A stretch of 64,000 nucleotides of DNA, from the NCBI GenBank assembly GCA_017626035.1, contig JAGAJR010000018.1:36329-100328 (forward strand). Reading direction: 5' to 3'. Position 1 is the stretch's first letter. Each line of letters starts with the position of its first letter. The notes below the pieces were generated by a model, which saw only the letters and a program-made list of their open reading frames with translations, ran no database searches and was not told the origin of the DNA. The position numbers were made by a program, and so were the translations under genes. Shown piece after piece: positions 318 to 25,832 of the stretch. The DNA comes from Alphaproteobacteria bacterium (GTDB lineage: Bacteria > Pseudomonadota > Alphaproteobacteria > RF32 > CAG-239).

Positions 318-2507
318 CTAAAGGATATTCAGCAGCATATCCAGCATTTCTTTGTTAGCGGTAAATGTTTGGGCACAAGCCGCATAGCTTTGCTGAAAGA
401 TAATAAGTTGAGCCAGTTCCTCATCCATATCAACCCCGCTGAGCTTAGCCTCTTTCAGGGAAATGGAATTGGTAAGCTCTGACTGGTAGTTGAAAGAAGA
501 TTCTGTTTCGTTGCATTGAGAAGCCAGATTGCCGACAAAAGTAGACGCATAGTTAGATAAGGTCGTCTGGGTTGAAGACAGCGTTCCGGCCTGAGAAAAA
601 GCTTGGGATGTCGCAAACGCTTCGGCCAAATCGTTGGCAATGTTGTTTGCGGCAGGGTTAAGCTGATATTCTCCGGAATTAGGGTTAAATTCAGGGGAAC
701 CGGCAGAAATCAGGCTTGGCGAAGTCAATAAATCATCCCGAACGCGAATAGAACCGGCGGTATCTGCATTAGACGGGTGCATACCGATTCTTTCCAAAAA
801 TCCGGTAGTTTGCGTCGCTCCGGCATTAAGAGCTTCGTTGATTTCCAATTGTTCTCCGGAAGTGTTGTTGATTTGTAAAACATAACCGCTGCCGTTAGGA
901 ACCAGAGAAGCTTTCAACTGCCCGTTAAGGTCATTGTTATTGTTGATTTTGTTGACAATGTCCTGAAGGCTGTCATTCGGATAGACGTTAATGGAACCCA
1001 AATTCGGATTATTGGCCGTTCCGAATTCCAGAGTAATTCTTTCCCGAACGCCGAGGTTAGCGTTTTTACTCAAAACTTTTGAATCATAAACGGCTTCGTT
1101 GGCGGTAGAGATAAAGAAATCGTTTAATCCGAAGAAATTTGAAAAACCTTCCATTGTTCGGTCAAAAGCACCGTCTCCGTTGACGTCAAAACGGACGGTA
1201 ACGTCTTTTTGTTCGCTTCCCGGAGTAGAATAAGCTTCATCCATAACCGAGAAGGAATAATTGCTGTCTCCGGTTTCAATAACCAGATTGCCGTCAGCGT
1301 TGATTTGGGCGTATGCTTGCGGCAGATTGGCCCCGTCAGGAGATTGCAGCCAGTCGTTAATTCTGGAGATGGTGTCGGTAACGCTTTCGCCCTCGGCAGG
1401 CATTCCCAAATTGCCGAGCAGGGTCGTTGTCGCAACCTGTTTTCCGTCAGCATCAAAGATTGTAAAACGGACATCACCGCCTTCAATTTGAATCTTTTGA
1501 ACATCCGGATTAATAAAGTCGCGGGTTCCGGTCAGAGATGACGGTGCGTTCGGATAAGAAGTTCCGCGGTTGTGAACTTGGTTTATTGAGTCTTTCAATA
1601 CCGAGGCTAATTCGTTTAACTGAGATTGCAAAGCAGTCAGGGAAGTGTCGCGGACTTCGATTAATCCTTTGATTTCACCGTTTTTAATGCGGTTGGTTAT
1701 ATCTTCTCCGTCCACATAAATTCCCCCGATTCCGCCGCCGGCATAAGATGTTGTCGGGCTGGCCTGAGCCACGGCACTGTGGGAAAGATAGTGCGGATAA
1801 CGGTCAAGAAGAGTAACGCCGTTGGTTGTTTGGATAACGATTTCTCCGTTTTCTCTGGTAAAATAAGAAAGGTCAATCAATCCGCTCAGGTTTCTTAAGG
1901 CCTCATCTCTCTGGTCTTCCAAATCGGCAACGCCTTCGTAGTTAAGAACCTTATATTTTACGATTTGATCGTTCAGTCTTTGAATGTCATCAAGATAGCC
2001 GTTGACTTGCTCGCAGGCTTCCGAAATATTTAAATCGGCATCGCCGCGGAGTTTTTGAATTTCCTGCGTCAGGGAGTTTAATCTGGAGGCAACGGTGTTA
2101 GCGTTGTTCAGCAAAGAATATCTGGCAGCAGAAGAGGTAACGTCGGAAGCAAACGTTTCAAAAGCAGACTGTAAGTCGGCAACATTGGCAGAAAGAGAAT
2201 TATTTCCCTGCGGTGTTCCGAGCAGAATTTCCGCTTTGCCCAAATATTGGCTTTGAGCGTTCAGGCTGCCTGTGGTGCAGTTGGAAGCCAGAAAGCTTTT
2301 AAGCAGGCCTTCGTTGACGTTGCGGGTAATGTCGCCGAGGGTAACGCCGGCATTTTGTCCGGCCAGAACGACGTTTTTCTGTTGTGCGACTTTACGGGTA
2401 TAACCGACGGTGTCCACATTGGCGATATTGCGTCCCACAATATCCATCTGAGACTGCGAAACTTTCATTCCCGTAAGGGCTGTTTGAATACCTGATAACA
2501 TTGCCAT
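318..2507 (-). CDS. flgK: Flagellar hook-associated protein 1 (FlgK)
   Basis: A 729-aa protein. The N-terminus MAMLSGIQTALTGMKVSQSQMDIVGRNIANVDTVGYTRK is the flagellar hook-filament junction signature. The C-terminal helical region ends LSGVDMDEELAQLIIFQQSYAACAQ. Confidence 0.85.
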   Translation of the reverse strand: MAMLSGIQTALTGMKVSQSQMDIVGRNIANVDTVGYTRKVAQQKNVVLAGQNAGVTLGDITRNVNEGLLKSFLASNCTTGSLNAQSQYLGKAEILLGTPQGNNSLSANVADLQSAFETFASDVTSSAARYSLLNNANTVASRLNSLTQEIQKLRGDADLNISEACEQVNGYLDDIQRLNDQIVKYKVLNYEGVADLEDQRDEALRNLSGLIDLSYFTRENGEIVIQTTNGVTLLDRYPHYLSHSAVAQASPTTSYAGGGIGGIYVDGEDITNRIKNGEIKGLIEVRDTSLTALQSQLNELASVLKDSINQVHNRGTSYPNAPSSLTGTRDFINPDVQKIQIEGGDVRFTIFDADGKQVATTTLLGNLGMPAEGESVTDTISRINDWLQSPDGANLPQAYAQINADGNLVIETGDSNYSFSVMDEAYSTPGSEQKDVTVRFDVNGDGAFDRTMEGFSNFFGLNDFFISTANEAVYDSKVLSKNANLGVRERITLEFGTANNPNLGSINVYPNDSLQDIVNKINNNNDLNGQLKASLVPNGSGYVLQINNTSGEQLEINEALNAGATQTTGFLERIGMHPSNADTAGSIRVRDDLLTSPSLISAGSPEFNPNSGEYQLNPAANNIANDLAEAFATSQAFSQAGTLSSTQTTLSNYASTFVGNLASQCNETESSFNYQSELTNSISLKEAKLSGVDMDEELAQLIIFQQSYAACAQTFTANKEMLDMLLNIL

Positions 2508-2518
2508 TGTAAAAACTC

Positions 2519-2980
2519 CTATAAAGTTCTGTTTATTGCGATTGCGTTTTTACTGTTATCCAAAGGTGAATACTTACCTTGGGAGCCATAAGATGTCGAA
2601 TTGGCATTATTGGTAATTTTGGCAATTCGGACAATTGAATCCATGACGGATTTGCTGGTTTCCATTCGGGTTTTCAGCAAAGTGTCATTTTCCTTGAGCA
2701 GGGTGTCAAGCTTGAGAGAAAGCTCTTTGACGTTATTTCTTTCCGTCTCTTCCAGAGCTTTCAGAACCTCCTGGTTCTTAATAAAATAAGCGACCAGATT
2801 GCGATATGCCGTAACGATTTTTGTTTTTTGTTCGTAAAGAGCGGTAACGGCATCCGTATCATAATTTCTGAGAGCTTCGTTTTCGATACTCAGAAGGTCG
2901 GAAAAACTGTTGATTATTTCTTTATAATCGGCAATTTTTCTGTTGAAATCTTCATTTTGAATTTGAGCTGTATTTTCCAT
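2519..2980 (-). CDS. FlgN-like flagellar export chaperone (tentative)
   Basis: A 153-aa helical protein lying between the rod-binding gene and flgK, the usual flgN position. The C-terminal ..YGSQGKYS.. resembles the FlgN tail. Confidence 0.4.
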   Translation of the reverse strand: MENTAQIQNEDFNRKIADYKEIINSFSDLLSIENEALRNYDTDAVTALYEQKTKIVTAYRNLVAYFIKNQEVLKALEETERNNVKELSLKLDTLLKENDTLLKTRMETSKSVMDSIVRIAKITNNANSTSYGSQGKYSPLDNSKNAIAINRTL

Positions 2981-2981
2981 A

Positions 2982-3347
2982 TTACACCTCTTTTCCGCTG
3001 GTTGGGATATTGCCTTGGGAAAAAGCTTCCTGCATATCCAAAATTGATTTCATGACATAGTCGGCAACTCCGACGGTTCCTGTTTTGGCCATGGCTTTTC
3101 CGTATTCGTTAATCAGCATGGAACGATAAATTTTTTCGGCATGGCCGCCGCCGAACATTCCGTCGGTGGAAATTCCTTCAAACATGGTTTCCATCATTCT
3201 GGAGAGGAAAAATGCTTCAAAGTCCTGAGCGGCTTCTTCGGCTTTTCCGGAAGCCTGCGTGTTTTTCAACATCCCCAGCATCGCTTTTTGTTTTTCAAAA
3301 GCGGCGGAAGCTTGGTCGAAGAATATGTTTGTTCCGGTCAACGTCAT
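2982..3347 (-). CDS. Flagellar rod-binding protein (FlgJ N-domain / CheL-like)
   Basis: A 121-aa protein with the motif DFEAFFLSRMMETMF, typical of the Rod_binding domain. It sits immediately downstream of flgI with a 1-nt gap, as in alphaproteobacteria. Confidence 0.6.
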   Translation of the reverse strand: MTLTGTNIFFDQASAAFEKQKAMLGMLKNTQASGKAEEAAQDFEAFFLSRMMETMFEGISTDGMFGGGHAEKIYRSMLINEYGKAMAKTGTVGVADYVMKSILDMQEAFSQGNIPTSGKEV

Positions 3348-3348
3348 T

Positions 3349-4473
3349 TTAGATTACCTCGATGTCTGCCTGCAGAGCCCCGCTGGCTTTGATGGCCTGC
3401 AAAATACTGATTAAATCCCTCGGCGTAACACCCAGAGCGTTCAGCCCGTCTACCAGTTCCTGAAGGTTAACGCCTGTTTCCAAAACAGCCAGACGGCTTT
3501 GAATATCTTCATTAATGTCAATGGCGGTGGTTGTTTCGACAACGGTTTCTCCGTTTGAAAACGGCAATGGCTGGGATACGAAAGGAACTTCCGAAATTTT
3601 AATTGTCAGGTTGCCTTGGGCAATGGCCAGTTTATTAATTTTGACGTCTTTGCCGATGACAACAATGCCGGAGCTTTCGTCAATAACAACTTTTGCCAGT
3701 TGATCCGGCTGAACACGGAGCTGTTCGATTTTGGTCATCAAATCAACAATTTTTCCTTCATAACTGCTCGGAACGTCAACCGAAATAGTTGTCGGATCAA
3801 GTGCTTGAGCCGTATCAATACCGAGCAGGGCGTTGATAGCGTCGGATACTCTGCGGGCGGTCGTAAAGTCAGGGTTGCGTAAGGCCAACCGGATTGTTTT
3901 CATGCTTTCCAAAGAAAAGTCCACTTCATTTTCGATAATGGCTCCGTTCGGAATGCGTCCCGAAGTCGGAACACCTTTGGTAACGGATTGGGTTGCCCCG
4001 CGGGCAGAAACCGCACCGGAAGCGACTTGTCCCTGAGCCACGGCATAAACTTCTCCGTTGGCAGCAACCAGCGGCGTGGCAATCAACGTTCCACCCTGAA
4101 GATTTTTGGCATCGCCGAGAGCACTGACCATGACGTCGATTCGGCTTCCTTGTCTTCCAAACGGCGGCAGGCTGGCCGTAACCATAACGGCGGCAACGTT
4201 CTTAGACTTAAGCTGTCCGTCTCTGGAGTTGATGCCGACCTGATCCAAAAGGGAGATAAGGCTTTCTTTGGCAAAATTAATGGATTTAATGTTATCGCCG
4301 GTGCCGTTCAGACCGACAACCAAACCGTAACCGACCAGTTGGTTTTCCCTGATGCCTTCAAAATCGGCAATATCTTTTATTCTGGAACTGGAAACGGCTT
4401 CCGTCGAATAAAAAGACATTAACAGTGTAATCACTGTAAAAATGGCGGTTTTCTTAAGGTTTAAGACTTTCAT
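3349..4473 (-). CDS. flgI: Flagellar P-ring protein FlgI
   Basis: A 374-aa protein with a signal peptide. Conserved FlgI blocks VGYGLVVGLNGTGD and GGTLIATPLVAANGEVYAVAQG are present. Confidence 0.9.
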   Translation of the reverse strand: MKVLNLKKTAIFTVITLLMSFYSTEAVSSSRIKDIADFEGIRENQLVGYGLVVGLNGTGDNIKSINFAKESLISLLDQVGINSRDGQLKSKNVAAVMVTASLPPFGRQGSRIDVMVSALGDAKNLQGGTLIATPLVAANGEVYAVAQGQVASGAVSARGATQSVTKGVPTSGRIPNGAIIENEVDFSLESMKTIRLALRNPDFTTARRVSDAINALLGIDTAQALDPTTISVDVPSSYEGKIVDLMTKIEQLRVQPDQLAKVVIDESSGIVVIGKDVKINKLAIAQGNLTIKISEVPFVSQPLPFSNGETVVETTTAIDINEDIQSRLAVLETGVNLQELVDGLNALGVTPRDLISILQAIKASGALQADIEVI

Positions 4474-6458: not shown

Positions 6459-7712
6459 ATGAACTTGAGAGTTGCTCCCGGTGCGGCGGAAAAGCTGGCA
6501 CAATTGAAAGCGGGAGCTTTGTTTGTTAAAGAGGAAACGAAAAAAATAGCTTTAGCACTTGATTTGGTTAAATCTAAACAAAGTGAAATAGATTTTATTG
6601 TCTGGATTGCTCCGGCAGCTTTTTGGGCCAGAAAGACGTATTGGGAAAACATAAGAAAAAAAGCCGGATGTTTCCGTAATAAAATTTGCAGCTATTCCGT
6701 TGAAAGCATTTCCATTTCGGATAATAAATATTTGCAGCTTTACAATCTGATTGACAAATACCGGACATTTTGTGTGATAGATGACAGCATTACCATCAAG
6801 AATACCGAGGCTGGCAGAACCAAAAGATTGTTGGCTGTCCGTCATAAATTTAAATACCGTTTGATTTTAAGCTCTTTGCCTTTGGCTCAAGGATTGATAG
6901 ATTTATATTCCCAGTTGGAATTTTTGGATTCAAAAATTTTGCGAATGAATGAGAGCCAGTTTTCCAATATGTTTCTGCCTTTTTACGAAGATTGTTACAA
7001 AACCTGGAGAAGATGGTCGCGGCCGGAAGATGAAAAACTTTTGGTGCAAATGATGCGTCCGTATGTTCTGACTTGCGATATGGCTCAAAACCGGCATTTT
7101 AAATACATTGACAATGATTTTGAACTGACGGACGTAGAACGCCGCAGCTATAAATATGAAAAGGATTTTTTCCTGAAAAACAGAACTCAGGTGGCTTTTA
7201 TGGAGGTCGTCCAGAGCTTTCAAAGAATGTATACCCTGAGCTATAATAAAATTCAGGCTCTGCTTATTTTATTGAAAAATATCACGGAGAGAAAAGAAAA
7301 GGTCATCATTTATATCAGATTTCTGGATGAAATAATTTTCTTTAAGGAAAGCGGTTTCCTGAACGGTTTTGATTTTGTCGAATGCACGGGAAAGTCAAAT
7401 AAACGGCAGGCTGTTTCGGCTTTCACAAGCGGCACGGATATTATGTTTTGTACTTATGGCGTAAACCAGCAGGATTTGGATTTGTCTTTGTGCCGGAATA
7501 TCATCTTTTTCTCTCAAACGTTTGACTATAAGAGCAAGGCACAGGTTTTGGGCAGCTTTAGCGGCGGAAAATTCAAACAGGACATTAATATTTATAATTT
7601 TTGGGTCAAAACCGGTTTAGAGATGATTATCCGGGATAATCTGACCCGCAAGGCAAATGTCTTGTCGCATGTCTGCCGGATTATTTCTCAAAAGGAGATA
7701 AACAGACTGTGA
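6459..7712 (+). CDS. SNF2-family helicase-like protein, N-terminally truncated or degenerate
   Basis: A 417-aa protein. An SNF2 motif III-like block (RLILSSLPLAQGLIDLYSQLEFLD) and a helicase-C region (ECTGKSNKRQAVSAFTSG...) are present. There is no Walker A. The DEAH position reads VIDDSITIKN. The stop overlaps the start of the next gene (ATGA). Confidence 0.5.
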   Translation: MNLRVAPGAAEKLAQLKAGALFVKEETKKIALALDLVKSKQSEIDFIVWIAPAAFWARKTYWENIRKKAGCFRNKICSYSVESISISDNKYLQLYNLIDKYRTFCVIDDSITIKNTEAGRTKRLLAVRHKFKYRLILSSLPLAQGLIDLYSQLEFLDSKILRMNESQFSNMFLPFYEDCYKTWRRWSRPEDEKLLVQMMRPYVLTCDMAQNRHFKYIDNDFELTDVERRSYKYEKDFFLKNRTQVAFMEVVQSFQRMYTLSYNKIQALLILLKNITERKEKVIIYIRFLDEIIFFKESGFLNGFDFVECTGKSNKRQAVSAFTSGTDIMFCTYGVNQQDLDLSLCRNIIFFSQTFDYKSKAQVLGSFSGGKFKQDINIYNFWVKTGLEMIIRDNLTRKANVLSHVCRIISQKEINRL

Positions 7713-9013
7713 AGAAATATTTGGATATAAACGTCTATGAGGCTGTGCAGGAACGTTTGAAATTTGTTTTTGAAAATTTTGAAAACATCTATGTTTCTTT
7801 TTCCGGCGGCAAAGATAGCGGGCTTTTGTTGAACTTGGTCTTGGATTATAAACGCCGCCATGGGATTAAGCGTAAAATCGGCGTCTTTCATCAGGATTTT
7901 GAAGCCCAGTATCAAACAACAACGGATTATGTTACCCGGATGTTTGAGAATAACCTGAATGATATAGAACCTTATTGGGTCTGCCTGCCGATGGGCTCCC
8001 GTTGTGCAGTCAGCAATTATCAAATGTATTGGTATCCGTGGGATAAGACGGAAAAAACTTCCTGGGTTCGTCCGATGCCGGCATTTTCTTATATCATTAA
8101 CGAAGAAAACAATCCGTTTGATTTTTATAAATATAAGATGACGCAGGAAGATTTGTATGCCGAGTTTGGTAAATGGTATGCCCGCACGCATGAAGGCAAA
8201 ACGATTTGCCTTTTGGGGATTCGGGCGGATGAATCGCTGAACCGTTACCGGGCGTATGCCAATGAGCGGAAAAGGATGGTTAAAGAGTCCAAGTGGACGG
8301 CCGAAAAAGGCAAAAATTTCTATAACGGCTATCCGCTTTATGATTGGACAACCAAAGATGTTTGGGTGGCAAACGGGAAATATGACTTTGATTACAATAA
8401 AATTTATGATCTGTTTTATAAAGCCGGATTGTCGATTAATCAAATGCGTGTGGCCAGCCCGTATCACGAGAGTGCCAAAGAAAGTCTGAACCTGTATCGG
8501 GTTTTGGAACCGGCAACCTGGATAAAAGTGGTAAGCCGAGTGCAGGGAGCAAACTTCGGAGCGATTTACGGAAATTCCAAAGCTCTGGGAGCCAGAAAAT
8601 TCACGCTGCCGGAAGGCCATACCTGGAGGTCTTATGTAAAATTTCTTTTGGCGACTTTGCCTGAAGAAATGCGGAAAAATTATATCAGCAAATTCAAAAC
8701 CTCAATTCGTTTCTGGTGGAAAAAAGGCGGCGTTGTCAGTGAAGAGGCGATTAAAGAACTGGAAAACTGCAATTATTCCATCATCCGCAACGGAAAAAGC
8801 AATTATCACAGCAGCAAGGATCAGGTACGTTTTTTGGGAACGCCGGATGATACGGACGATATTAAATCCACCATAGATATTCCGTCATGGAAACGTATGG
8901 CGATTTGTATTCTGAAGAATGACCATTTGTGCAAATATATGGGTTTTACCCAAACACAAAAACAAAGTTCCCGGCAAAAAGAACTTATCGAAAAATACCG
9001 AAAAATGTTATAA
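7709..9013 (+). CDS. PAPS-reductase-like PP-loop protein with DUF3440-like C-terminus (IbrA/YbdN-like)
   Basis: A 434-aa protein. It carries the PP-loop SFSGGKDSG. The N-terminus MKKYLDINVYEAVQERLKFVFENFENIYVSFSGGKDS is typical of the IbrA/YbdN family. Confidence 0.7.
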   Translation: MKKYLDINVYEAVQERLKFVFENFENIYVSFSGGKDSGLLLNLVLDYKRRHGIKRKIGVFHQDFEAQYQTTTDYVTRMFENNLNDIEPYWVCLPMGSRCAVSNYQMYWYPWDKTEKTSWVRPMPAFSYIINEENNPFDFYKYKMTQEDLYAEFGKWYARTHEGKTICLLGIRADESLNRYRAYANERKRMVKESKWTAEKGKNFYNGYPLYDWTTKDVWVANGKYDFDYNKIYDLFYKAGLSINQMRVASPYHESAKESLNLYRVLEPATWIKVVSRVQGANFGAIYGNSKALGARKFTLPEGHTWRSYVKFLLATLPEEMRKNYISKFKTSIRFWWKKGGVVSEEAIKELENCNYSIIRNGKSNYHSSKDQVRFLGTPDDTDDIKSTIDIPSWKRMAICILKNDHLCKYMGFTQTQKQSSRQKELIEKYRKML

Positions 9014-9024
9014 GGAAAACACTA

Positions 9025-9537
9025 ATGAACAAATTTGTCAGTCCGGTTTATAATGTGCAGGCCATTCCCGTCGAAAAAATACGGGCCAATAACTATAATC
9101 CGAACAAAGTCGCTCCGCCGGAGATGAAACTGTTGGAGATTTCTATTTGGGAAGATGGTTATACTCAGCCGATAGTTTGTTATTATGACAAAGAGAAAGA
9201 CGAATATATCGTTGTCGACGGTTTTCACCGTTATACGGTTATGCTGACCAGCGACCGGATTTATGAGCGGGAAGGCGGAAAAATGCCGGTGGTGGTGATT
9301 GATAAGGAACTGGGAGAACGCATGGCCTCTACCATACGCCACAACCGGGCTCGGGGCAGCCATAGCGTCGACTTGATGAGCAATATCGTGTCTGAACTTC
9401 TGGAGATGGGAAAAAGCGATGCCTGGATTTGCCGCAATATCGGAATGTCTGCGGATGAATTGTTGCGTTTAAAACAGTTGACAGGATTGGCTTCTCTGTT
9501 TAAGGATGAGGAGTTTTCCCGCAGTTGGGAAGCCTGA
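9025..9537 (+). CDS. ParB-like nuclease domain protein (IbrB/YbdM-like)
   Basis: The start was chosen at the ATG at 9025, which has an AAGGA RBS. ParB N-domain motifs IPVEKIRANNYNPN and VVDGFHRYTV...TIRHNRARGSH are present. Confidence 0.7.
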   Translation: MNKFVSPVYNVQAIPVEKIRANNYNPNKVAPPEMKLLEISIWEDGYTQPIVCYYDKEKDEYIVVDGFHRYTVMLTSDRIYEREGGKMPVVVIDKELGERMASTIRHNRARGSHSVDLMSNIVSELLEMGKSDAWICRNIGMSADELLRLKQLTGLASLFKDEEFSRSWEA

Positions 9538-10319
9538 AAGGATTATCTTTGCGAAATAAGATATTGATATATTGTGATTACGGTTGTTCGGATATTACCA
9601 ACCTGCACAAGGAACTGGAACGCTGTTTTCAAGACAAAGGCATTAAAATTTCCGAAGTTGACGCTTCGGGAATTATTAAGGAAAACGCCTTAAATGAGGA
9701 AGTCTTGGCCTTTTTTATGCCGGGCGGAGCTTCCACGCCGTATCGGCAGAAACTCAAAGAATACGGAAACGATAAAATTGCGGAATATGTAAAAAACGGC
9801 GGTGTCTATTTTGGTATTTGTGCCGGAGCGTATTATGCCTGCGATAAAATAAACTTTGAAATGGATGTCCCCGAACTCCGGTTGGAGAGAACCGGAATGA
9901 ACTTGATAAATGCCGCGGCGGTGGGAACTTTGTATAAAGAACTTGGAATAGCTCCTTATTCTCCGGACACGTCTTCTGCCGCGGTGGTTGATATTCGTTG
10001 TGAAGACGATGGAGCCGTTTGTGCCGCTTATTATCACGGAGGCCCGTATTTTGACATATCTGAAGATAAAGAATGCGAGGTTTTGGGAACTTATGAAAAT
10101 GTAAAAAATCATCCTCCGGCAATTATTGCTAAAAAATACGGAAAGGGGATGGTTTTAGCCTCGGGAGTGCATCTTGAAGACAGCGGGGAACGTCTGGGAG
10201 CCGCCATTCACAAACTGAAAAAGGATAGGGACAACGCCTTGGCAATCGCCGAACAATTAAAAAAGCGGGAAATTTCCAGACAGATTCTGTTTAATAAAAT
10301 GATGAACCGTATCCGGTAA
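9525..10319 (+). CDS. BPL_N / class-I glutamine-amidotransferase-like protein
   Basis: A 264-aa protein. It has a GATase1-like nucleophile elbow VYFGICAGAYYA. The TTG start overlaps the end of the ParB-like gene by 13 nt. Confidence 0.5.
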   Translation: MGSLKGLSLRNKILIYCDYGCSDITNLHKELERCFQDKGIKISEVDASGIIKENALNEEVLAFFMPGGASTPYRQKLKEYGNDKIAEYVKNGGVYFGICAGAYYACDKINFEMDVPELRLERTGMNLINAAAVGTLYKELGIAPYSPDTSSAAVVDIRCEDDGAVCAAYYHGGPYFDISEDKECEVLGTYENVKNHPPAIIAKKYGKGMVLASGVHLEDSGERLGAAIHKLKKDRDNALAIAEQLKKREISRQILFNKMMNRIR

Positions 10320-10665: not shown

Positions 10666-11574
10666 ATGAAGTTATCGTCGGTTTTGATGTCTGTTTTTAT
10701 TGTTGCCTGTTGGGGGCTGAACGCGTCAATAGGAAAAATGGGCGTAATGGAAGTTCCGCCGCTGGCTTTTTTGACTATTCGTTTTATTTTTGCCGGACTG
10801 TTGTTTTTGCCGTTTGCCAAGCTTGACAAATCCCAGTTGAAAATGCTGTTTTTGATTGCTTTGCTGCTGAATGTCGGGCATATGGGCTGCATTTTTGTTG
10901 CCCTAAAATTTCTGACGGCGTCTTCCGCATCGGTGTTGCAGCAATGCGAAGTGCCCATTGCTGCGATTGTGGCCTGCATTTTTGCCGGAGAAAAAATGAA
11001 CGTTCAGCAAATTATGGGAATCATCATTGCTTTTCTGGGAATTTTATGTATTTTCGGGATTCCGGAAATTAATATGGTCGGATTGGTTGCCGCTTTGTTT
11101 TCCGGTTTGTTTTGGGCATTTGCCCAACTGGCGTTCAAACGGGCTAAGAAAATGGATTCATACAGCTTTCTGGCATATACCTCTCTTTTCTCGGTTCCGT
11201 TTTTGGGAGCGGCTTCTTATTTTCTGGAAGACAATCATTATATAGCTTTGTTGCAAGCCGCCGATTACAAATTTTATCTCTCCATGTCATATCAGGTGTT
11301 GGTTTTAGGTGTGGTTATGATGTTGTGGCAGCGGGTTGTTGCCGAAAACGGCATAAATAAGGCCATTCCGTTTACACTTTTGCACATTGTGTTCGGCATT
11401 ATGGGGGGAATGATATTCTTCGGCGACACTCTGAATGTTTATATTGTCAGCGGGGCGTTGCTGATTGTCGGCGGCGTGGCTCTGACCATTTTGCCGCAAA
11501 TTGACATTAAAAAAATATGGTATCGGCTGTTTCCGCACCATAAGCCGCAGAAGAATGAAAGCCTGCCTTTATGA
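10666..11574 (+). CDS. EamA/DMT-family transporter
   Basis: The start was chosen at the ATG at 10666, which has an AAGGGAGAAAG RBS. The protein has about 10 predicted TM segments and EamA-like repeats. Confidence 0.65.
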   Translation: MKLSSVLMSVFIVACWGLNASIGKMGVMEVPPLAFLTIRFIFAGLLFLPFAKLDKSQLKMLFLIALLLNVGHMGCIFVALKFLTASSASVLQQCEVPIAAIVACIFAGEKMNVQQIMGIIIAFLGILCIFGIPEINMVGLVAALFSGLFWAFAQLAFKRAKKMDSYSFLAYTSLFSVPFLGAASYFLEDNHYIALLQAADYKFYLSMSYQVLVLGVVMMLWQRVVAENGINKAIPFTLLHIVFGIMGGMIFFGDTLNVYIVSGALLIVGGVALTILPQIDIKKIWYRLFPHHKPQKNESLPL

Positions 11575-13400
11575 TTGATATTAACGACATAACCGTTCGC
11601 ATTGGCTCTAAAGTTTTGTTGTCTGGAGCATCTGCCCATATTTCCGACGGACAGAAAGTCGGATTGATAGGGGCAAACGGCTGTGGCAAATCTACGTTGT
11701 TTCGGGTTTTGCGGGGAGAATTGGAAACCGAGACCGGAACGGTGGTTTTTCCGAGCCGGCATAAAGTCGTTTTTGTGGAGCAGGAAATGAAAGACGTTTC
11801 CGTTCCGATATTGGAATTTGTCTTAAATAAGGATGAAGAAAGAAGCCGCTTGTTACAAAGTTTGGAGAAGGCTTCGGAAGAAGAACTGGCCGAAATCCAT
11901 GAACGGCTGCGAATAATCGGAGCGTCTTCGGCAGAAGCCAGAGCTGCGGAAATTTTGGTGGGACTTGGTTTTTCTCCTGAAGATTTTTCCCGCCCGATAA
12001 AAGAATTTTCCGGCGGGTGGAGAATGCGTCTGAGTTTGGCTGCGGCATTATTTCAGCCGTCTGATGTTTTGCTTCTCGACGAACCGACCAATCACTTGGA
12101 TTTGGAAGCCGGGATTTGGTTGGAAAATCATTTGCAAAAATATCGGGGGACATTGCTTCTTATCAGCCATGACCGGAATATACTGAACAGTTTGTGTGAT
12201 TATATCATTCATTTTGACAATCAAACCTTGGTAACCTATTCCGGAAACTATGATAATTTTGAAAAGACCCGGGCTTTGCAGCGGGAAGTTTTGTCCCGGC
12301 AGGCCAAAAAGCAGGAAATGCACCGTAAACATCTTCAGTCTTTTGTCGACCGTTTTCGTTACAAAGCCACCAAAGCCAAACAAGCCCAAAGCCGTTTAAA
12401 AATGTTGGAAAAAATGGAAATGCTTTCTCCGGTTAAAGATGATGTTTCAACGCATTTTGAATTTCCGGAACCGGAAAAACTTTCTCCTCCGTTCGTCAGC
12501 ATTGAAAACGGCGTAGTCGGATATGGAGATAAACCGGTGCTGAAAAAACTTTCCTTCCGGATTGTTGACAATGACCGGATAGCTTTGTTGGGAGCCAACG
12601 GCAACGGTAAATCGACTTTGGCGAAACTATTGTCCGGACGGCTGCCTCTGATGAGCGGAGAAATAAGAAAAACGCCGAAATTAAAAGTCGGATATTTTGC
12701 CCAGTATCAGACGGAAGAGCTTCCCGAGGAACAAACCGCCGCGGAGTATATGTCTTCTTTGATGCCGGAAGCCAATGAAACCAAAGTCCGTTCGCATTTG
12801 GCAAGGTTTGGCCTGGGACAGGAAAAAGCCCTGACGGTTATCGGCAGTTTGTCGGGAGGAGAAAAGGCTCGTCTCTTGTTTGCCGCGATTACGACGGAAG
12901 CCCCGGCGTTGTTGATTTTGGACGAACCGACCAACCATTTGGATATTGATGCCAGAGATGCTTTGGTTGAAGCGGTAAACGCCTATGGCGGCTCAGTTAT
13001 TCTGATTACGCACGATATTCGCCTGATAGAATTGATAGCCGATGACCTGTGGTTGGTTAAGAACGGTCTGTGCCGTCCGTATGACGGAGATTTGGACGAC
13101 TATAAAAAGCTGCTTCTGGAGGAGAAGAAACCGACAGAAAAAATAAAGGAAGAAAAACCTACGGAGCGGAAAGAAAATACTTATAACCTCAAAAAACAGC
13201 TCAGTTCTCAGATTCGTAAGCTGGAAACCGAAATAGACAAACTACAGAAACGAAAAAATGCTTTGGAACAACTTTTTTCGGAACAATTGTCAATGGAAGA
13301 CATCGTTAAAAATAATAAGGAATTAAAGCAAATTCAGGAACTTCTGGAACAACGGGAAAATGAGTGGCTGGAACTTTCCGGACAATTGGAAAATTTGTAG
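11571..13400 (+). CDS. ABC-F family ATPase (Uup/EttA-like)
   Basis: A 609-aa protein with two ABC cassettes. Each has Walker A (GANGCGKST / GANGNGKST) and the LSGG signature, followed by a C-terminal coiled coil. Confidence 0.85.
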   Translation: MIDINDITVRIGSKVLLSGASAHISDGQKVGLIGANGCGKSTLFRVLRGELETETGTVVFPSRHKVVFVEQEMKDVSVPILEFVLNKDEERSRLLQSLEKASEEELAEIHERLRIIGASSAEARAAEILVGLGFSPEDFSRPIKEFSGGWRMRLSLAAALFQPSDVLLLDEPTNHLDLEAGIWLENHLQKYRGTLLLISHDRNILNSLCDYIIHFDNQTLVTYSGNYDNFEKTRALQREVLSRQAKKQEMHRKHLQSFVDRFRYKATKAKQAQSRLKMLEKMEMLSPVKDDVSTHFEFPEPEKLSPPFVSIENGVVGYGDKPVLKKLSFRIVDNDRIALLGANGNGKSTLAKLLSGRLPLMSGEIRKTPKLKVGYFAQYQTEELPEEQTAAEYMSSLMPEANETKVRSHLARFGLGQEKALTVIGSLSGGEKARLLFAAITTEAPALLILDEPTNHLDIDARDALVEAVNAYGGSVILITHDIRLIELIADDLWLVKNGLCRPYDGDLDDYKKLLLEEKKPTEKIKEEKPTERKENTYNLKKQLSSQIRKLETEIDKLQKRKNALEQLFSEQLSMEDIVKNNKELKQIQELLEQRENEWLELSGQLENL

Positions 13401-13436: not shown

Positions 13437-13465
13437 TTGCAAGGATAGAAAATATATGCTATTAT
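13437..13465 (+). promoter_or_regulatory. Sigma70-like promoter for the LRR effector gene
   Basis: The elements are TTGCAA, a 17-nt spacer and TATTAT. A GAGGA RBS precedes the ATG at 13487. Confidence 0.5.
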
Positions 13466-13486
13466 CCCGGCACTATATGAGGATAA

Positions 13487-16132
13487 ATGATGAAAATCGC
13501 TGATTTCAAAGAATATATGGCAGCCATCCGCAGCCTTTATTCCGGTTCTTCTGCGGAAGAACTGGATGCACTTTTGCACGATTTGAAATCTGCGTCAATC
13601 CAAAGGGAAAATACCAAAAAGAAACTTCAGGCGGAACTTAAAAAAATCAGATACCGGATTAACCTGTTACGAGAAAGAATTAAACAGGCACAAGGGATTG
13701 AGGATAAAATTGAAGCCAGCCGTGAAATAAAAGAATATCAGCAGTTAAAAAAGGAATTTATACTTAAAAATAAGGAACTTGAAGGCGTCCCCCGTTTTGA
13801 AATGTTGTCACCTTATGCCAAAACGGCAGCTTGTACGGATTTTTTGTTGAAAAAATATCTGACAAAAGAGATTGTCAAAAACAACCCGCTCGGGTTTAAG
13901 AAAAATCAGAGAGGAGATATTGTTGTTGATATTAAACAGCTTCAAAATTCCCATTTATATCAGGAAGCGGCTCATATAAGAGACTATGTTTCGTCTTATA
14001 TTAACCTGTATCCGCATCGGGTTTTGGGAGCAGGATATTTTAACGGAAAACTGTCGGAAATGAAAAGCTGGACTGAACTTCTGGAGGCGGCGGACAGGCA
14101 TTTTGACGAAATCAACCGTAAGGAAAAAGAAAACAAAGATAAAGAAAAAAAGGTTGCCGAAAGCCGGGACGGAATAGAAAGCGTAGAAATTTATGCCTCG
14201 GAAAATCTTCAGGCCGTAAGGCTTCTGAGCGAAAATGCCTTAAAGTATGAAGGCCGGGAAATGGGGCATTGTGTCGGCAGTTATTACAATCGTGTAAAAA
14301 ACGGCACATCTCAAATTTATTCCTTGCGGGATTATAATGAGGAGGGAGAGCTGGTTCCTCACGTAACGATTGAGGTTGTTGGCGACAGAGTGGTTCAGAT
14401 AAAGGGACGGTCCGACAAAATGGCTGCTCCCCGTTATATAAAGGCGGCTCGGAATTTGGTTATGAAACTTTCCGGAATAAAAACTTTGGAAAAGTTGAAA
14501 AATACGCAAAACATTCCATCATCGGAGCTTGAAAATATCGGGTTTATAAAAGATAAAAACAATAAGATTCAAGATATTTTATCGCTTAAGAAAGATGAAA
14601 TTGAATTATATAATTTAACGATAAACGGAGAAGATTTAAATTATCTGAATTTGGAAAGATTGAAAGTAACCGAACTGTATTTAACGGGTGTTCTTTCTCA
14701 GTCTGTCTTGGATAATCTGGCAAAATTAAAATCTCTGCAATCAATCAGTTTGGGAAAGGTAAAATCCGTCGAAGGGAAGAGTTTGGATTTCGGAGGATTG
14801 TCAGAAATAAAACATTTAACTTTGTCTTCTTGCGATTTGTCGTCTGTCAAAAAAATATGTCTTCCTGAAAATTTGCAGGATTTATATTTAGGGAAGGTCA
14901 AGAGCGGATTGGATATCGTTTATTCCAAGAATCTGAAAAGCTTGAATATAAGCCTATCCTCTGCCGCTGATATTAAATATTTTGAAGAAAAAATATCTTC
15001 CCCGATATTGAAAATATATGTGCAGGATATGGATATCCGGGAGAATTTGTCTTTTGCCAAAACGAGTTTGCTGGTATTTGAAAATTGCCGGATTGAGGAA
15101 GGAAAGCATATTTTCGTATCGGAAAATTTGCAAAATTTGGAAGTGGAAGAATCTCCGGGGCTGTTGGAGTCGATAGTTTTTGAAAACCAAAACAACATAA
15201 AGGTTCTAAAATCAGATGACGGGAGTGTTTTCAACAGCAATGTGATTTCTCCGAATTTATCATCTTTTGTTGTCGGCAATGTTGAACTTGATGAGAAAAC
15301 CGCCGCACAAATATCTGAAATGTCAGAGTTGCGGGTATTGGGTTTGAACGAAGTTTCCTATCATGCCAAGCAGCCGTGGATTATTCCCGAAAGTACGGAA
15401 TGGATTACTTTTAGCGGGGTTGATTTTGACGGTATTTTGTCCGGAGAAAAATGTTCAAATCTGCAAAAAGTTGTATTGATTGGATGTGATTTGCAGAATG
15501 CGGATGTGAGGTTAAACACCGTTTTGAAGCAATCAACTTTAAATCTGGTGCAGAGCAAAGTCGGTATTGAATTTGACTTTGATATGTTCAAAGGTGTAAC
15601 CGAATTGAATGTTGGCAGCCAGGATTTATCGGCAAGAAGCAAAGAATTGAAGTTTCCGGAGACAGTGGAAACTCTGTTGTTAGGCGGTTGGCTTCCCGAT
15701 AAAATGACGGAATTGGACTTGACTCCGTATAAAAAATTGCGGACAATCAATATGGGAATGATGAGCGGCAGAAATGTGGAAAAGATAATTTTTCCTGAGA
15801 ATCTGGTCGATTTTACATTTGATGAAATTGGCTGGCTCAAGTCATTGACTGAGTTGGATTTAAGCCGTTGTCACAAAATGACGGATTGGAATGAAACCTT
15901 GCTTAATCAGTTTACATTGATTAAACTTCCGGAAACAATAAAAAAGATGCCATGGAAACAAATGGCGTTTAATGATAATGTTCGGATTGAACTGCATGCA
16001 AATACGCCGCAGGAAGTTGTGGAAGAATTTAAATCCCATTTGGGGAATAAAGTTATTATCGGCAAAAAGCAACAGGAAAAAGGGAAGATAAATCTTTTGC
16101 CGATGTTGTTCGACAAATGTCAGGAATTTTAG
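13487..16132 (+). CDS. Large LRR-containing effector-like protein with a conserved N-terminal domain (H-C motif)
   Basis: An 881-aa AT-rich gene. The N-terminal domain contains EGREMGHCVGSYYNRV...IYSLRD...PHVTIEV. The C-terminal ~500 aa are leucine-rich repeat-like (LxxLxLxxC/N). Confidence 0.65.
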   Translation: MMKIADFKEYMAAIRSLYSGSSAEELDALLHDLKSASIQRENTKKKLQAELKKIRYRINLLRERIKQAQGIEDKIEASREIKEYQQLKKEFILKNKELEGVPRFEMLSPYAKTAACTDFLLKKYLTKEIVKNNPLGFKKNQRGDIVVDIKQLQNSHLYQEAAHIRDYVSSYINLYPHRVLGAGYFNGKLSEMKSWTELLEAADRHFDEINRKEKENKDKEKKVAESRDGIESVEIYASENLQAVRLLSENALKYEGREMGHCVGSYYNRVKNGTSQIYSLRDYNEEGELVPHVTIEVVGDRVVQIKGRSDKMAAPRYIKAARNLVMKLSGIKTLEKLKNTQNIPSSELENIGFIKDKNNKIQDILSLKKDEIELYNLTINGEDLNYLNLERLKVTELYLTGVLSQSVLDNLAKLKSLQSISLGKVKSVEGKSLDFGGLSEIKHLTLSSCDLSSVKKICLPENLQDLYLGKVKSGLDIVYSKNLKSLNISLSSAADIKYFEEKISSPILKIYVQDMDIRENLSFAKTSLLVFENCRIEEGKHIFVSENLQNLEVEESPGLLESIVFENQNNIKVLKSDDGSVFNSNVISPNLSSFVVGNVELDEKTAAQISEMSELRVLGLNEVSYHAKQPWIIPESTEWITFSGVDFDGILSGEKCSNLQKVVLIGCDLQNADVRLNTVLKQSTLNLVQSKVGIEFDFDMFKGVTELNVGSQDLSARSKELKFPETVETLLLGGWLPDKMTELDLTPYKKLRTINMGMMSGRNVEKIIFPENLVDFTFDEIGWLKSLTELDLSRCHKMTDWNETLLNQFTLIKLPETIKKMPWKQMAFNDNVRIELHANTPQEVVEEFKSHLGNKVIIGKKQQEKGKINLLPMLFDKCQEF

Positions 16133-16178: not shown

Positions 16179-17087
16179 ATGCGTATGGGTGTATCAGTAT
16201 CTGCCGTTAAAAATTTAATGGTTACCCTAGGGGTAAAAGCAGACGAGTTGTTTTCCGCGGAGGAGTTCAAAACTTTTTTGACCGAAACCGTTGCAAAACA
16301 AGGGCTCGTCATCAGTGATGTTTTCGATGAGAAGGCACAAAAACTTTTCATTGAAGAGTGGTTCAAAAGCAATCCGGCCGCCCTGGAAAAACTGTTTTCT
16401 GCACAGTCTCAGGAAACCTTTGTCTTCAATTGGGTCAAAACACATCCGGACTGTTTTGGCAAACTGTTTCCCACAGAGGCGGAACGGCTGAAAAAAACGG
16501 AAGAGTTTGTGGCTGACATGGCGAAAAGTATGGCCTCCTCAGAGCAAAAAATAACTGCCGAAAAACAGCCTGATGCTGAAAAGACGGTGGCCGCACCTCC
16601 TGTTCAGACGGTTTCCGCCGATGAAGGACAAGAAGCTCTCAGGGATGTTGCTTCGGCGGCATCTTCTCAGGAAACTTCCGTTGAAGAAAAACAGGAAACT
16701 CCCGTCGAGGAAAAACTGGAGTTCGTCAGGGACGGAAATTATCAGTTTGTCCGTCAAAACGGTTTGGTTATCGGAGTTGTTATTGACGCCGGAACACGAA
16801 AGTTTATCGTCATGCACGATTATGACCAGGACAACCTGTCCAAGGAAGAGGCACGTAAAAGGGCTGAACGCCGTCCGACAGTCAAAGGTAAACACTGGCG
16901 TCTGTTAACGGATGATGATTGCCGGGCAATGTGCAGCTCTCTGAGATCCGGAGGCGGTAAGGGACAAAATGCCTTGGCTTCGCTGATGAAAAAGCTCGGC
17001 GGCAATTTCTGTCATCAGGAGCACTTGACCTCCGACTATCACGGTCCGCAAAGGTATAAAGTCAAATATGCCGTGGATCTGGATTGA
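16179..17087 (+). CDS. Hypothetical protein (302 aa), acidic central region
   Basis: A long ORF with consistent coding potential. No recognisable domain. It follows the LRR gene. Confidence 0.45.
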   Translation: MRMGVSVSAVKNLMVTLGVKADELFSAEEFKTFLTETVAKQGLVISDVFDEKAQKLFIEEWFKSNPAALEKLFSAQSQETFVFNWVKTHPDCFGKLFPTEAERLKKTEEFVADMAKSMASSEQKITAEKQPDAEKTVAAPPVQTVSADEGQEALRDVASAASSQETSVEEKQETPVEEKLEFVRDGNYQFVRQNGLVIGVVIDAGTRKFIVMHDYDQDNLSKEEARKRAERRPTVKGKHWRLLTDDDCRAMCSSLRSGGGKGQNALASLMKKLGGNFCHQEHLTSDYHGPQRYKVKYAVDLD

Positions 17088-17105: not shown

Positions 17106-17152
17106 AAAAAAAGAACTCTCTTGTCATAACAAGGCAAGAGAGTTCTTTTTGT
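17106..17152. terminator. Bidirectional intrinsic terminator
   Basis: The perfect 12-bp stem AGAACTCTCTTG/CAAGAGAGTTCT is flanked by an A-tract and a T-tract. It lies between convergent genes. Confidence 0.7.
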
Positions 17153-25238: not shown

Positions 25239-25832
25239 TTATTTAGTAATCCCCAATTTTTGCACAAAATGCTGAGAATATTCTTTTGCGGTCATTTTTT
25301 GAAAAGGGTATTCAAAATTGTAATATTCACGATTATTTTCCAATTCATTTTCTCGGGTTTTTGCCCATCCGCTTTGAAAATATTTATCTCCAACTCCAGA
25401 AGATACAATACCTCTGCTTTCAGAAAGATAGCTTCGTAACGCAGGTATAAAATTCTCTTCTCCGAATTTTACGATTAGGTATTTTCCTTCACTGTCCTGA
25501 ATACGAATTCCTTTAGATAAGAATTCAGAGAGTTTTTTTTCTAAAAATTCTGTTTCTTCGTTAATATTTAGGCGAGGTTTGGAAGATGTAAAACCTTGTA
25601 TTATTCTTTTTAAACTTCCGACACCGACATTTTCATAGGTTTTCACAGGAATAAACTTAATATCATTATTCGTTACAATGACTTTCCCTATATAATAATC
25701 ATCTCCTTTTTGATCCCCATTCAAATATTGATATTTTGCATAGCTGACAATATGAAATGTCGTTAATACATTCATTTTTGATGCACCCAATACGATGCTT
25801 ACTAAAAATAATATTAAAAATTTTTTCATCAT
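25239..25832 (-). CDS. Hypothetical secreted protein (197 aa)
   Basis: It has an N-terminal signal peptide MMKKFLILFLVSIVLGA and an RBS. Confidence 0.4.
   Translation of the reverse strand: MMKKFLILFLVSIVLGASKMNVLTTFHIVSYAKYQYLNGDQKGDDYYIGKVIVTNNDIKFIPVKTYENVGVGSLKRIIQGFTSSKPRLNINEETEFLEKKLSEFLSKGIRIQDSEGKYLIVKFGEENFIPALRSYLSESRGIVSSGVGDKYFQSGWAKTRENELENNREYYNFEYPFQKMTAKEYSQHFVQKLGITK

Follow-up and report, generated by a model that had tools for sequence, protein, structure and literature searches.

A PcfJ-domain leucine-rich-repeat protein and its conserved partner gene in uncultured gut and rumen Alphaproteobacteria

INTRODUCTION

What does a bacterial protein do that carries an enzymatic-looking head in front of a long leucine-rich-repeat (LRR) region, and does it act in the cell that makes it or in another one? 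This question is raised by one long plus-strand open reading frame (ORF) at 13487-16132 in a 64,000-nucleotide stretch of an alphaproteobacterial genome (assembly GCA_017626035.1, contig JAGAJR010000018.1; the whole stretch is called the window below), which encodes 881 amino acids (aa) from its first ATG. The original prediction for this gene, made from the DNA letters, described a candidate secreted effector with a possibly novel enzymatic head, perhaps acquired horizontally, and pointed to LRRs in effectors of intracellular bacteria. Our analysis supports the architecture of an enzymatic-looking head followed by a C-terminal LRR region, identifies the head as a PcfJ domain, and places the gene in a two-gene operon with a conserved partner. 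Both the head subfamily and the operon are restricted to uncultured gut and rumen Alphaproteobacteria.

RESULTS

The head is a PcfJ domain with an invariant core

Residues 198-319 of the head matched the Pfam family PcfJ (PF14284) with 50 bits, where the cutoff is 25 (E = 3.7e-13; positions 27-144 of the 147 in the model), and 19 of 19 relatives matched the same family. The N-terminal domain had been taken to be novel, a claim refuted by its membership in this large known family. An exhaustive search with a hidden Markov model (HMM) of the head, built from the first 369 residues of seven relatives, returned 8,291 clusters (50% identity) at E <= 1e-3 and 55 at E <= 1e-30, and about 50 of the latter share the entire 365-residue head in proteins of 700-1,050 aa. 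No domain besides PcfJ rose above threshold in Pfam or NCBIfam, neither NCBIfam nor PADLOC gave a match for the protein, and Pfam scans of 24 diverse PcfJ cores for a consensus of weak matches returned PcfJ alone. Among PHROGs, the head matched two phage families annotated as being of unknown function. The head and its conserved residues are laid out as follows.

13487..13786, plus strand: residues 1-100, long helical hairpin, coiled-coil-like and conserved in the subfamily (predicted helices 23-67 and 71-100; alignments)
13787..14170, plus strand: residues 101-228, helical subdomain with the subfamily motif HIxDYVxxY (H163, D166, Y171; high-confidence model, see below; invariant columns)
14171..14581, plus strand: residues 229-365, PcfJ core of two beta strands, two alpha helices, three beta strands and one alpha helix (PF14284, conservation, predicted structure)
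14249-14251, plus strand: codon of E255 in the PcfJ core (sequence)
14267-14272, plus strand: codons of H261-C262 in the PcfJ core (sequence)
14327-14329, plus strand: codon of R281 in the PcfJ core (sequence)
Other conserved residues of the PcfJ core: Y266, S279, P291-H292, T294, E296, Q304, K306 and G307 (alignment over 202 domains)

The peptide core that had been picked out earlier, YEGREMGHCVGSYYNRVKNG...IYSLRD...PHVTIEVVGDRVVQIKGR, is present and strongly conserved. We computed residue conservation over 202 diverse PcfJ domain instances. Glu255 and Arg281 were found in all of them (202/202, 100% each) and Cys262 in all but one (201/202, 99.5%), followed by Gly307 (99%), Tyr266 and Pro291 (98% each), Thr294 (97%), Ser279 (96%), Gln304 (93%), Glu296 (92%), His261 (87%), and His292 (85%). 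The window protein has every residue of the PcfJ signature, E-x(5)-HC-x(3)-Y ... SxR ... PHxTxE ... QxKG. In about 12% of the domains His261 is replaced by Asn or Ile, and His261 and His292 are often lost jointly (as in the pairs Asn/Val and Asn/Ile) with Cys, Glu, and Arg retained. Because His261 is not universal and is lost while the other three stay, a strict adjacent His-Cys dyad is unlikely to be an essential pair. Of the two residues in the His-Cys catalytic dyad or metal site proposed earlier, both of which lie in a conserved core, Cys262 is family-invariant and His261 is not.

The full signature is shared with the PcfJ family at large, including its founder, pCF10 PcfJ of Enterococcus faecalis, as well as Brochothrix phage A9 gp163 and a protein of Listeria phage LP-064. 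Canonical PcfJ proteins are found in phages, on plasmids, and in polyvalent proteins, with the domain usually internal or C-terminal, whereas the window gene is chromosomal and carries the domain in an N-terminal 365-aa head. Unlike canonical PcfJ proteins, it also has an extra coiled-coil and helical subdomain, an LRR fusion, and a constant partner gene.

The predicted structure of the head is consistent with a thiol enzyme

We modeled residues 101-369 with AlphaFold2 (AF2; 15 sequences) at a predicted local distance difference test (pLDDT) score of 92.6; the full-length model scored 78.5, with 85-94 in the head. The predicted core runs in the order strand 230-236, strand 241-246, helix 249-259, helix 262-271, strand 276-282, strand 291-298, strand 301-306, and helix 315-329. 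Cys262 is the first residue (N-cap) of helix 262-271 in two AF2 models, and nucleophilic cysteines typically sit at such a helix start. Along the strands, the conserved residues alternate (279/281; 292/294/296; 304/306), so they should share one face of the sheet. In the model, Glu255, Cys262, Arg281, Ser279, Thr294, Glu296, Gln304, Tyr266, His261, and His292 would line one face between two helices and the three-stranded sheet. A thiol enzyme is the most economical reading of the head as modeled.

As to which chemistry such an enzyme might perform, the top Foldseek matches of the head in the PDB were weak and repeatedly MYST/GNAT acetyltransferases (E = 0.07-0.5, probability up to 0.85). These (Esa1, MOF, and KAT6A; SpeG and AtaT) were the only PDB folds recurring among its weak matches. 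The head shares a GNAT-like topology of one strand, two helices, three strands, and one helix, and its conserved QIKG occupies the loop that joins strand four to helix three, the place of Q/RxxGxG/A in GNATs. A Cys and a Glu are used by MYST enzymes, but the head has its Cys, Glu, and loop motif in a different order. It also departs from both families in that the PcfJ Pfam domain stops at the third helix and a fifth strand of the acetyl-CoA cleft is not part of what is conserved. The head has no sequence HMM relationship to GNAT or MYST, and the structural matches lie below significance. We consider GNAT/MYST-like acyl transfer a weak lead from the modeled structure.

Other folds fared less well. 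A T-fold (QueF/FolE-like) is suggested by the two-strand, two-helix, two-strand order, but no T-fold protein was among the top 50 Foldseek matches, and a PD-(D/E)xK nuclease (E296 ... QxK306) had neither structural nor HMM support. The spacing and topology of C262 at a helix N-cap, H292, and Q304 are suggestive of papain/NlpC-P60; we rejected this fold, as it gave no Foldseek matches and about 15% of members do without His292, and kept it only as an alternative chemistry. Against the viral models of BFVD, Foldseek returned 38 matches at E <= 1e-3, of which the named ones are "PcfJ-like" or otherwise uncharacterized phage proteins.

The LRR region is acidic and fast-evolving and belongs to a set of exchangeable scaffolds

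The region that follows the head is described below.

14582..16054, plus strand: residues 366-856, irregular LRR solenoid of ~22-residue repeats, about 20 turns, acidic (isoelectric point [pI] 4.99) and fast-evolving (Foldseek, periodicity, HMM matches of relatives)

That the C-terminal ~500 residues form LRRs, as proposed from the sequence, was borne out by the AF2 model, periodicity, and relatives, although the protein's own Pfam match fails (LRR_8, E = 0.67, 10.2 bits where 27 are required) and a PDB phmmer search with it gave internalin H at E = 5.3. All of the top 50 Foldseek matches of the full-length model in the PDB were LRR proteins (among them CroV588, TLR8, FLS2, SHOC2, and InlA; probability 1.00), the best being the circular LRR of CroV588 (E = 7.6e-7). 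Hydrophobic autocorrelation peaked at 22 residues, and LxxLxL occurred 30 times against 20.8 +/- 3.8 expected. Among the relatives, LRR HMM matches were to LRR_4 in 11/19 (best 1.1e-7), LRR_EndoS in 7/19, and FNIP in 6/19.

The LRR region was acidic in all 19 proteins (pI 4.9-6.3) and has diverged faster than the head. Within 90% clusters, variable columns made up 17.1% of the LRR against 7.4% of the head, and 1.7% against 0.5% in a second cluster, a 2.3- to 3.4-fold excess; mean pairwise identity was 26% for the LRR and 40% for the head.

The same kind of head is also found on other scaffolds. Four distant relatives (P0133, P0140, P0148, and P0163) carry the whole ~365-aa head in front of a WD40/beta-propeller-like C-terminal region, without LRRs, and P0110 joins PcfJ to LRV/HEAT repeats. 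In bacteria of the candidate phyla radiation (CPR), the variable region in some targets of diversity-generating retroelements (DGRs) is preceded by a PcfJ-like domain (PMC5758913, category g), and on DGR-diversified targets PcfJ heads occur alongside P-loop NTPase and nucleotidyltransferase heads (PMC5758913). The occurrence of one head on LRR, WD40/beta-propeller, LRV/HEAT, and DGR variable regions points to a swappable targeting module. The CPR targets likewise combine a PcfJ head with a hypervariable ligand-binding C-terminal module, but here the LRR repeats vary through ordinary divergence and not through a retroelement; we saw no reverse transcriptase or template repeat near the window locus.

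The gene forms a two-gene operon with a conserved partner

The window locus is a two-gene operon that runs from the candidate promoter at 13437 through the PcfJ-LRR gene and the partner gene to the terminator at 17108-17150.

13437..13465, plus strand: candidate sigma-70-like promoter, TTGCAA-17-TATTAT with a TG extension (9/12 positions matched)
13480..13483, plus strand: ribosome-binding site AGGA, 6 nt ahead of the ATG at 13490, the likely true start (read from the sequence)
13487..16132, plus strand: PcfJ-LRR gene, 881 aa from the first ATG or 880 aa from 13490 (ORF list, Pfam, database match)
16179..17087, plus strand: conserved partner gene, 302 aa (same-strand ORF downstream in all complete loci; alignments)
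16668..16720, plus strand: 24-bp tandem repeat, 2.2 copies, in the partner linker at the site of indels between strains (repeat search, strain comparison)
17108..17150, no strand assigned: bidirectional intrinsic terminator hairpin (A-run, stem, T-run) that closes the two-gene unit and the convergent MerR gene (folding energy against shuffles)

By their Pfam labels, the upstream neighbor is an ABC-F ATPase gene (11571-13400), and the 302-aa ORF downstream is followed by a convergent MerR-family gene. We favor the second ATG (13490) as the start, giving 880 aa, on account of the AGGA ahead of it and of the N-termini of all homologs and of the database protein P0001, which begin MKIA.... P0001 (880 aa) is 100% identical to the window protein and is present on 10 rumen-metagenome contigs.

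The promoter had been called near-consensus. The TTGCAA-17-TATTAT site exists and has a TG extension, but 9 of 12 matched positions do not make it near-consensus; given this match and the 12 promoter-type sites in the region against 8.1 +/- 3.2 in shuffles, it is plausible only. The hairpin at the other end has an 18-bp stem and a folding energy of -25.4 kcal/mol (z = -6.6; 0/200 shuffles as stable). It was overlooked by a consensus terminator scan, probably because the scan is tuned to short stems. We found no terminator between the two genes.

The partner gene is a new point that was absent from the original prediction. In 17 of 17 complete loci (the window locus, the P0002 locus, and 15 from a genome scan), a same-strand ORF of 172-302 aa begins 39-110 nt past the PcfJ-LRR stop, and the partners of the window and of P0002 are 34% identical (E = 3e-52). 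An NCBI protein from "MAG: Alphaproteobacteria bacterium" has the same sequence as the window partner. Partners consist of an N-terminal helix with the motif V-AV--LM-TLGV, a variable acidic linker, and a basic C-terminal domain of ~110 aa with an invariant Trp in the motif G--W(R/I/K)(V/I/L)(P/L)(S/T). This domain has a pI of 9.38 in the window partner and of at least 8.7 in 12 of 15 partners, which makes it charge-complementary to the acidic LRR. Among strains that are 84-96% identical (P0199-P0206), the partner is length-polymorphic in its linker (294-336 aa; indels of 8, 13, and 21 residues), and both end domains are nearly invariant between strains that differ in it.

Database searches returned little for the partner. 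There was no PDB profile match and no PADLOC family (0), and its one PHROG match, to a family of unknown function, involves the N-terminal region, with none for the C-terminal domain. Lcl_C/DUF1566 (PF07603) was matched by 1 of 15 partners, weakly and below cutoff (E = 0.0055). The motif W(R/I)(V/I/L)P(S/T) is reminiscent of Lcl_C. Polymorphic toxin/immunity pairs have an N-terminal trafficking domain, a C-terminal toxin domain, and an immunity gene immediately downstream. The locus shares with them a conserved downstream gene, but its protein starts with the enzymatic-looking domain and ends in the LRR region and tail.

A basic C-terminal tail is conserved in the subfamily

The protein ends in a short segment beyond the LRR.

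16055..16129, plus strand: residues 857-881, basic C-terminal tail, largely of low confidence (disordered) in the model (net charge +2; pLDDT)

In the full-length AF2 model, pLDDT fell below 50 at residues 862-869 and 877-881. The last 25 residues are unalignable among relatives, yet they are nearly always basic. Their mean charge was +3.2 +/- 1.8 in 49 subfamily representatives against +0.76 in 46 other window proteins (Mann-Whitney p = 3e-6, which overstates independence since the representatives are related), and a charge of +2 or more was seen in 84% of the representatives against 37% of other window proteins. LRR windows taken as a control had a mean charge of -0.5, with 20% at +2 or more, and distant PcfJ proteins had an intermediate tail charge (+1.1). 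Neither the PcfJ-LRR protein nor its partner has a Sec signal or a transmembrane segment (maximum 19-residue hydropathy, 0.93 and 1.24, against 2.37 in an EamA control).

Known type IV secretion signals are short, disordered, positively charged C-terminal tails (PMC11098119). The window protein shares with substrates of VirB/VirD4 type IV secretion systems (T4SSs), such as the Agrobacterium Vir effectors and the Bartonella Beps, an enzymatic-type N-terminal domain, a short positive C-terminal tail, and an alphaproteobacterial host. Unlike these substrates, it has no BID domain and no Pfam match to a known effector family, and there are no T4SS genes in the window. The secreted-effector role proposed for it is possible and gains the basic disordered tail as an argument, which is a lead and not a demonstration.

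A second comparison concerns the LRR. IpaH, SspH, and SlrP of Shigella and Salmonella combine LRR substrate recognition with a catalytic-cysteine NEL E3 ligase and lack a Sec signal. The window protein follows the same logic, an LRR joined to a candidate cysteine-dependent domain without a Sec signal, but its domain order is reversed, it has no NEL domain (no Pfam match), and it has no sequence or fold relationship to these proteins. The secretion route would differ as well, through an N-terminal signal of the type III secretion system there and the basic C-terminal tail here.

The operon lies among housekeeping genes of gut and rumen bacteria

The 17 closest genomic relatives are all metagenome-assembled genomes (MAGs) of uncultured gut or rumen Alphaproteobacteria, from rumen (cattle, roe deer) and mouse gut. 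Genes of the window encode FlgK and FlgI (318-4473, minus strand), Mrp antiporter subunits, RNase J, an RNB-family exoribonuclease, PriA, and UvrA. These flagellar and housekeeping genes indicate the ordinary chromosome of a motile bacterium, and the presence of FlgK and FlgI argues against an obligate intracellular lifestyle. We found no support for an intracellular lifestyle of the host, an uncultured, flagellated gut or rumen alphaproteobacterium.

Unrelated housekeeping genes surround the gene pair in six independent contexts, and we saw no mobile-element genes, integrase, or T4SS genes in any of them. A defense-island context was rejected for 5 of the 6 loci.

The sharp drop in base composition ascribed to the gene was overstated. 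Its GC content is 0.382 against 0.431 +/- 0.034 in 37 other window ORFs (z about -1.4), and at third codon positions (GC3) it is 0.406 against 0.453 +/- 0.052 (z about -0.9). The biggest deficit lies at codon position 2 (0.289 against 0.351), so the deviation reflects an amino-acid composition rich in K, N, I, L, and S. The AT-rich run quoted in the original prediction was located at 14549-14584, and several other window genes are as AT-rich or more so. A far stronger compositional outlier is a 197-aa ORF at 25239-25832 on the minus strand (GC 0.303 and GC3 0.227, against a window mean of 0.43). We reject recent horizontal transfer, which the modest GC deviation and the six contexts without mobile-element genes do not support.

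About 3 kb upstream of the operon lies a four-gene cluster (6459-10319, plus strand) for an SNF2-related protein (417 aa), a phosphoadenosine phosphosulfate (PAPS)-reductase/DUF3440 protein (434 aa), a ParB_N protein, and a BPL_N/GATase-like protein. The PAPS-reductase/DUF3440 protein had weak DndC matches (6e-7). The PAPS-reductase and ParB pair resembles IbrA/IbrB, and the cluster may be of a DNA-modification or defense type.

DISCUSSION

How, then, might the two proteins act? We tentatively favor, as possible rather than probable, an LRR-guided thiol enzyme that is exported by its basic tail and bound by the partner encoded in the same operon. The protein would be made in the cytoplasm with three modules, the conserved 365-aa head, the acidic and diverging LRR, and the short disordered basic tail. 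The LRR would bind a variable protein ligand and deliver the head to its target, where the head would act as a thiol-dependent enzyme with Cys262 at the helix N-cap as nucleophile; acyl transfer and hydrolysis are candidates. The tail would most likely serve as an export signal of the type IV secretion type, leading to action in another cell. The partner may bind the PcfJ-LRR protein through its N-terminal helix and basic C-terminal domain and be a cognate regulator, an immunity factor, or an adaptor. The effector idea survives here as one of two main readings.

Several points weigh against this scheme. Foldseek of the head against the PDB gave nothing at E <= 1e-3, and neither did a sequence-profile search of the PDB; with no significant fold match, the proposed chemistry is a guess. 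The literature searched describes no enzymatic activity for any PcfJ protein. Secretion-system genes were found neither in the 64-kb window nor within +/-10 kb in five other genomes, the basic tail, whose statistics come from related proteins, could equally bind nucleic acid or membrane, and the partner is not of the acidic chaperone type, its likeness to Lcl_C resting on one weak member match. A mirror-tree test was uninformative, as partial correlations were 0.30 for LRR and partner and 0.27 for head and partner and LRR-partner co-evolution was not singled out.

PcfJ is also recorded in other settings. The PcfJ core is present on at least 389 IMG/VR viral contigs, none of which carries the whole head, and in a phage collection PcfJ occurs in large Bacillus myoviruses and other phages as "hypothetical protein". 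On the E. faecalis plasmid pBE32_1 (NZ_CP110051.1, 7205-9243), a canonical PcfJ gene abuts the 3' side of a gene annotated 'Cas9 inhibitor AcrIIA9 family'. Both belong to a leading-region-like block that follows the relaxase region and also has genes for a single-stranded DNA-binding protein (SSB), a thermonuclease, RelB/YafQ, and DpnD/PcfM; this neighborhood hints at an anti-defense or establishment role for PcfJ. In pCF10, pcfJ is grouped with type IV secretion-related genes (PMC12855274), a point in favor of the exported enzyme, and in pLG2 it adjoins an SSB gene according to the literature. We found no functional study of PcfJ in the literature searched, where queries for 'PcfJ' were swamped by C. 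elegans pCFJ plasmids. A location on mobile elements is typical of PcfJ, if not obligatory; the locus here lies on the chromosome between ABC-F ATPase and MerR genes. Giant proteins contain PcfJ in two to four copies or joined to ART-PolyVal, Amidase_2, or Lar-like domains; giant PcfJ proteins in our set include P0099 (3332 aa), P0118 (2243 aa, with a Lar-like restriction-alleviation motif), P0150, P0174, and P0110.

The second reading, which we regard as rather unlikely, is an intracellular conflict module in which nothing is exported: the LRR would sense an invader protein, the PcfJ head would modify a cellular or phage target, and the partner would regulate or neutralize it. The distribution of PcfJ, mostly in phages, conjugative plasmids, and polyvalent proteins, is consistent with such a module, as are the AcrIIA9-family, SSB, nuclease, and toxin-antitoxin genes beside it in E. 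faecalis and its presence on DGR-diversified targets beside P-loop NTPase and nucleotidyltransferase heads. So are the fast evolution of the LRR, the resemblance of swappable LRR, WD40, and HEAT sensors to NLR-like immune proteins, and the IbrA/IbrB-like cluster with an SNF2-like gene upstream in the window. However, PADLOC matched neither protein, an NTPase switch domain is lacking, the pair lies in housekeeping neighborhoods and not in defense islands in all six contexts, and the conserved basic tail would be left unexplained.

We judge it improbable that the PcfJ core is a noncatalytic scaffold that binds nucleic acid or metal through Cys, His, and Glu ligands and has, with its partner, a lineage-specific housekeeping or regulatory role. 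The joint loss of His261 and His292 in some members is expected of residues in a single site, such as one that binds metal together with Cys262 and Glu296. The searches matched no enzyme fold, and a chromosomal locus in stable housekeeping neighborhoods in many species of one lineage fits such a role. Yet Cys262, Glu255, and Arg281 are invariant even where both His are missing, which argues against a simple His2-Cys metal site. A cluster of about ten conserved polar residues on a single face, with Ser, Thr, Gln, Tyr, and Arg among them, is seen more typically in active sites. The fast divergence of the LRR and the length polymorphism of the partner also fit conflict better than housekeeping.

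Still more doubtful is the reading of the original prediction, a classical eukaryote-targeting effector recently acquired by an intracellular or protist-associated bacterium: the rumen is rich in ciliates, relatives match FNIP/IP22-type repeats, which amoebae and giant viruses typically carry, CroV588 is the top PDB match, and the tail is basic, but the host region encodes flagella and ordinary free-living housekeeping functions, GC and GC3 deviate by about one standard deviation, no context has mobile-element genes nearby, and the family has spread vertically and widely among MAGs of gut Alphaproteobacteria.

Returning to the LRR-guided thiol enzyme that we favor, we can extend it to the family as a whole in a form that we put forward as a long shot. 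PcfJ proteins would be unrecognized cysteine-dependent enzymes that modify proteins or nucleic acids and are sent into hosts by phages and conjugative plasmids. In gut Alphaproteobacteria, one of them would have been domesticated as an effector delivered by type IV secretion, with its target set by a swappable LRR or WD40 scaffold and its activity checked by a co-evolving, LRR-bound partner.

Our analysis adds to the PcfJ family a 365-aa head subfamily, an obligatory partner, LRR and WD40 scaffolds that are swappable, a conserved basic tail, and a sharpened set of candidate catalytic residues, Glu255, Cys262, and Arg281. The locus thereby offers a tractable handle on PcfJ, as its head is well modeled and has a short list of invariant residues (E255, C262, and R281). 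The LRR is a built-in targeting domain that could be used for substrate fishing, and the partner is perhaps a natural regulator. If the tail is not an export signal, the locus adds a new domain architecture and a conserved gene pair to a known domain family; if it is, these proteins would make a candidate effector family of uncultured gut and rumen Alphaproteobacteria, a poorly known group.

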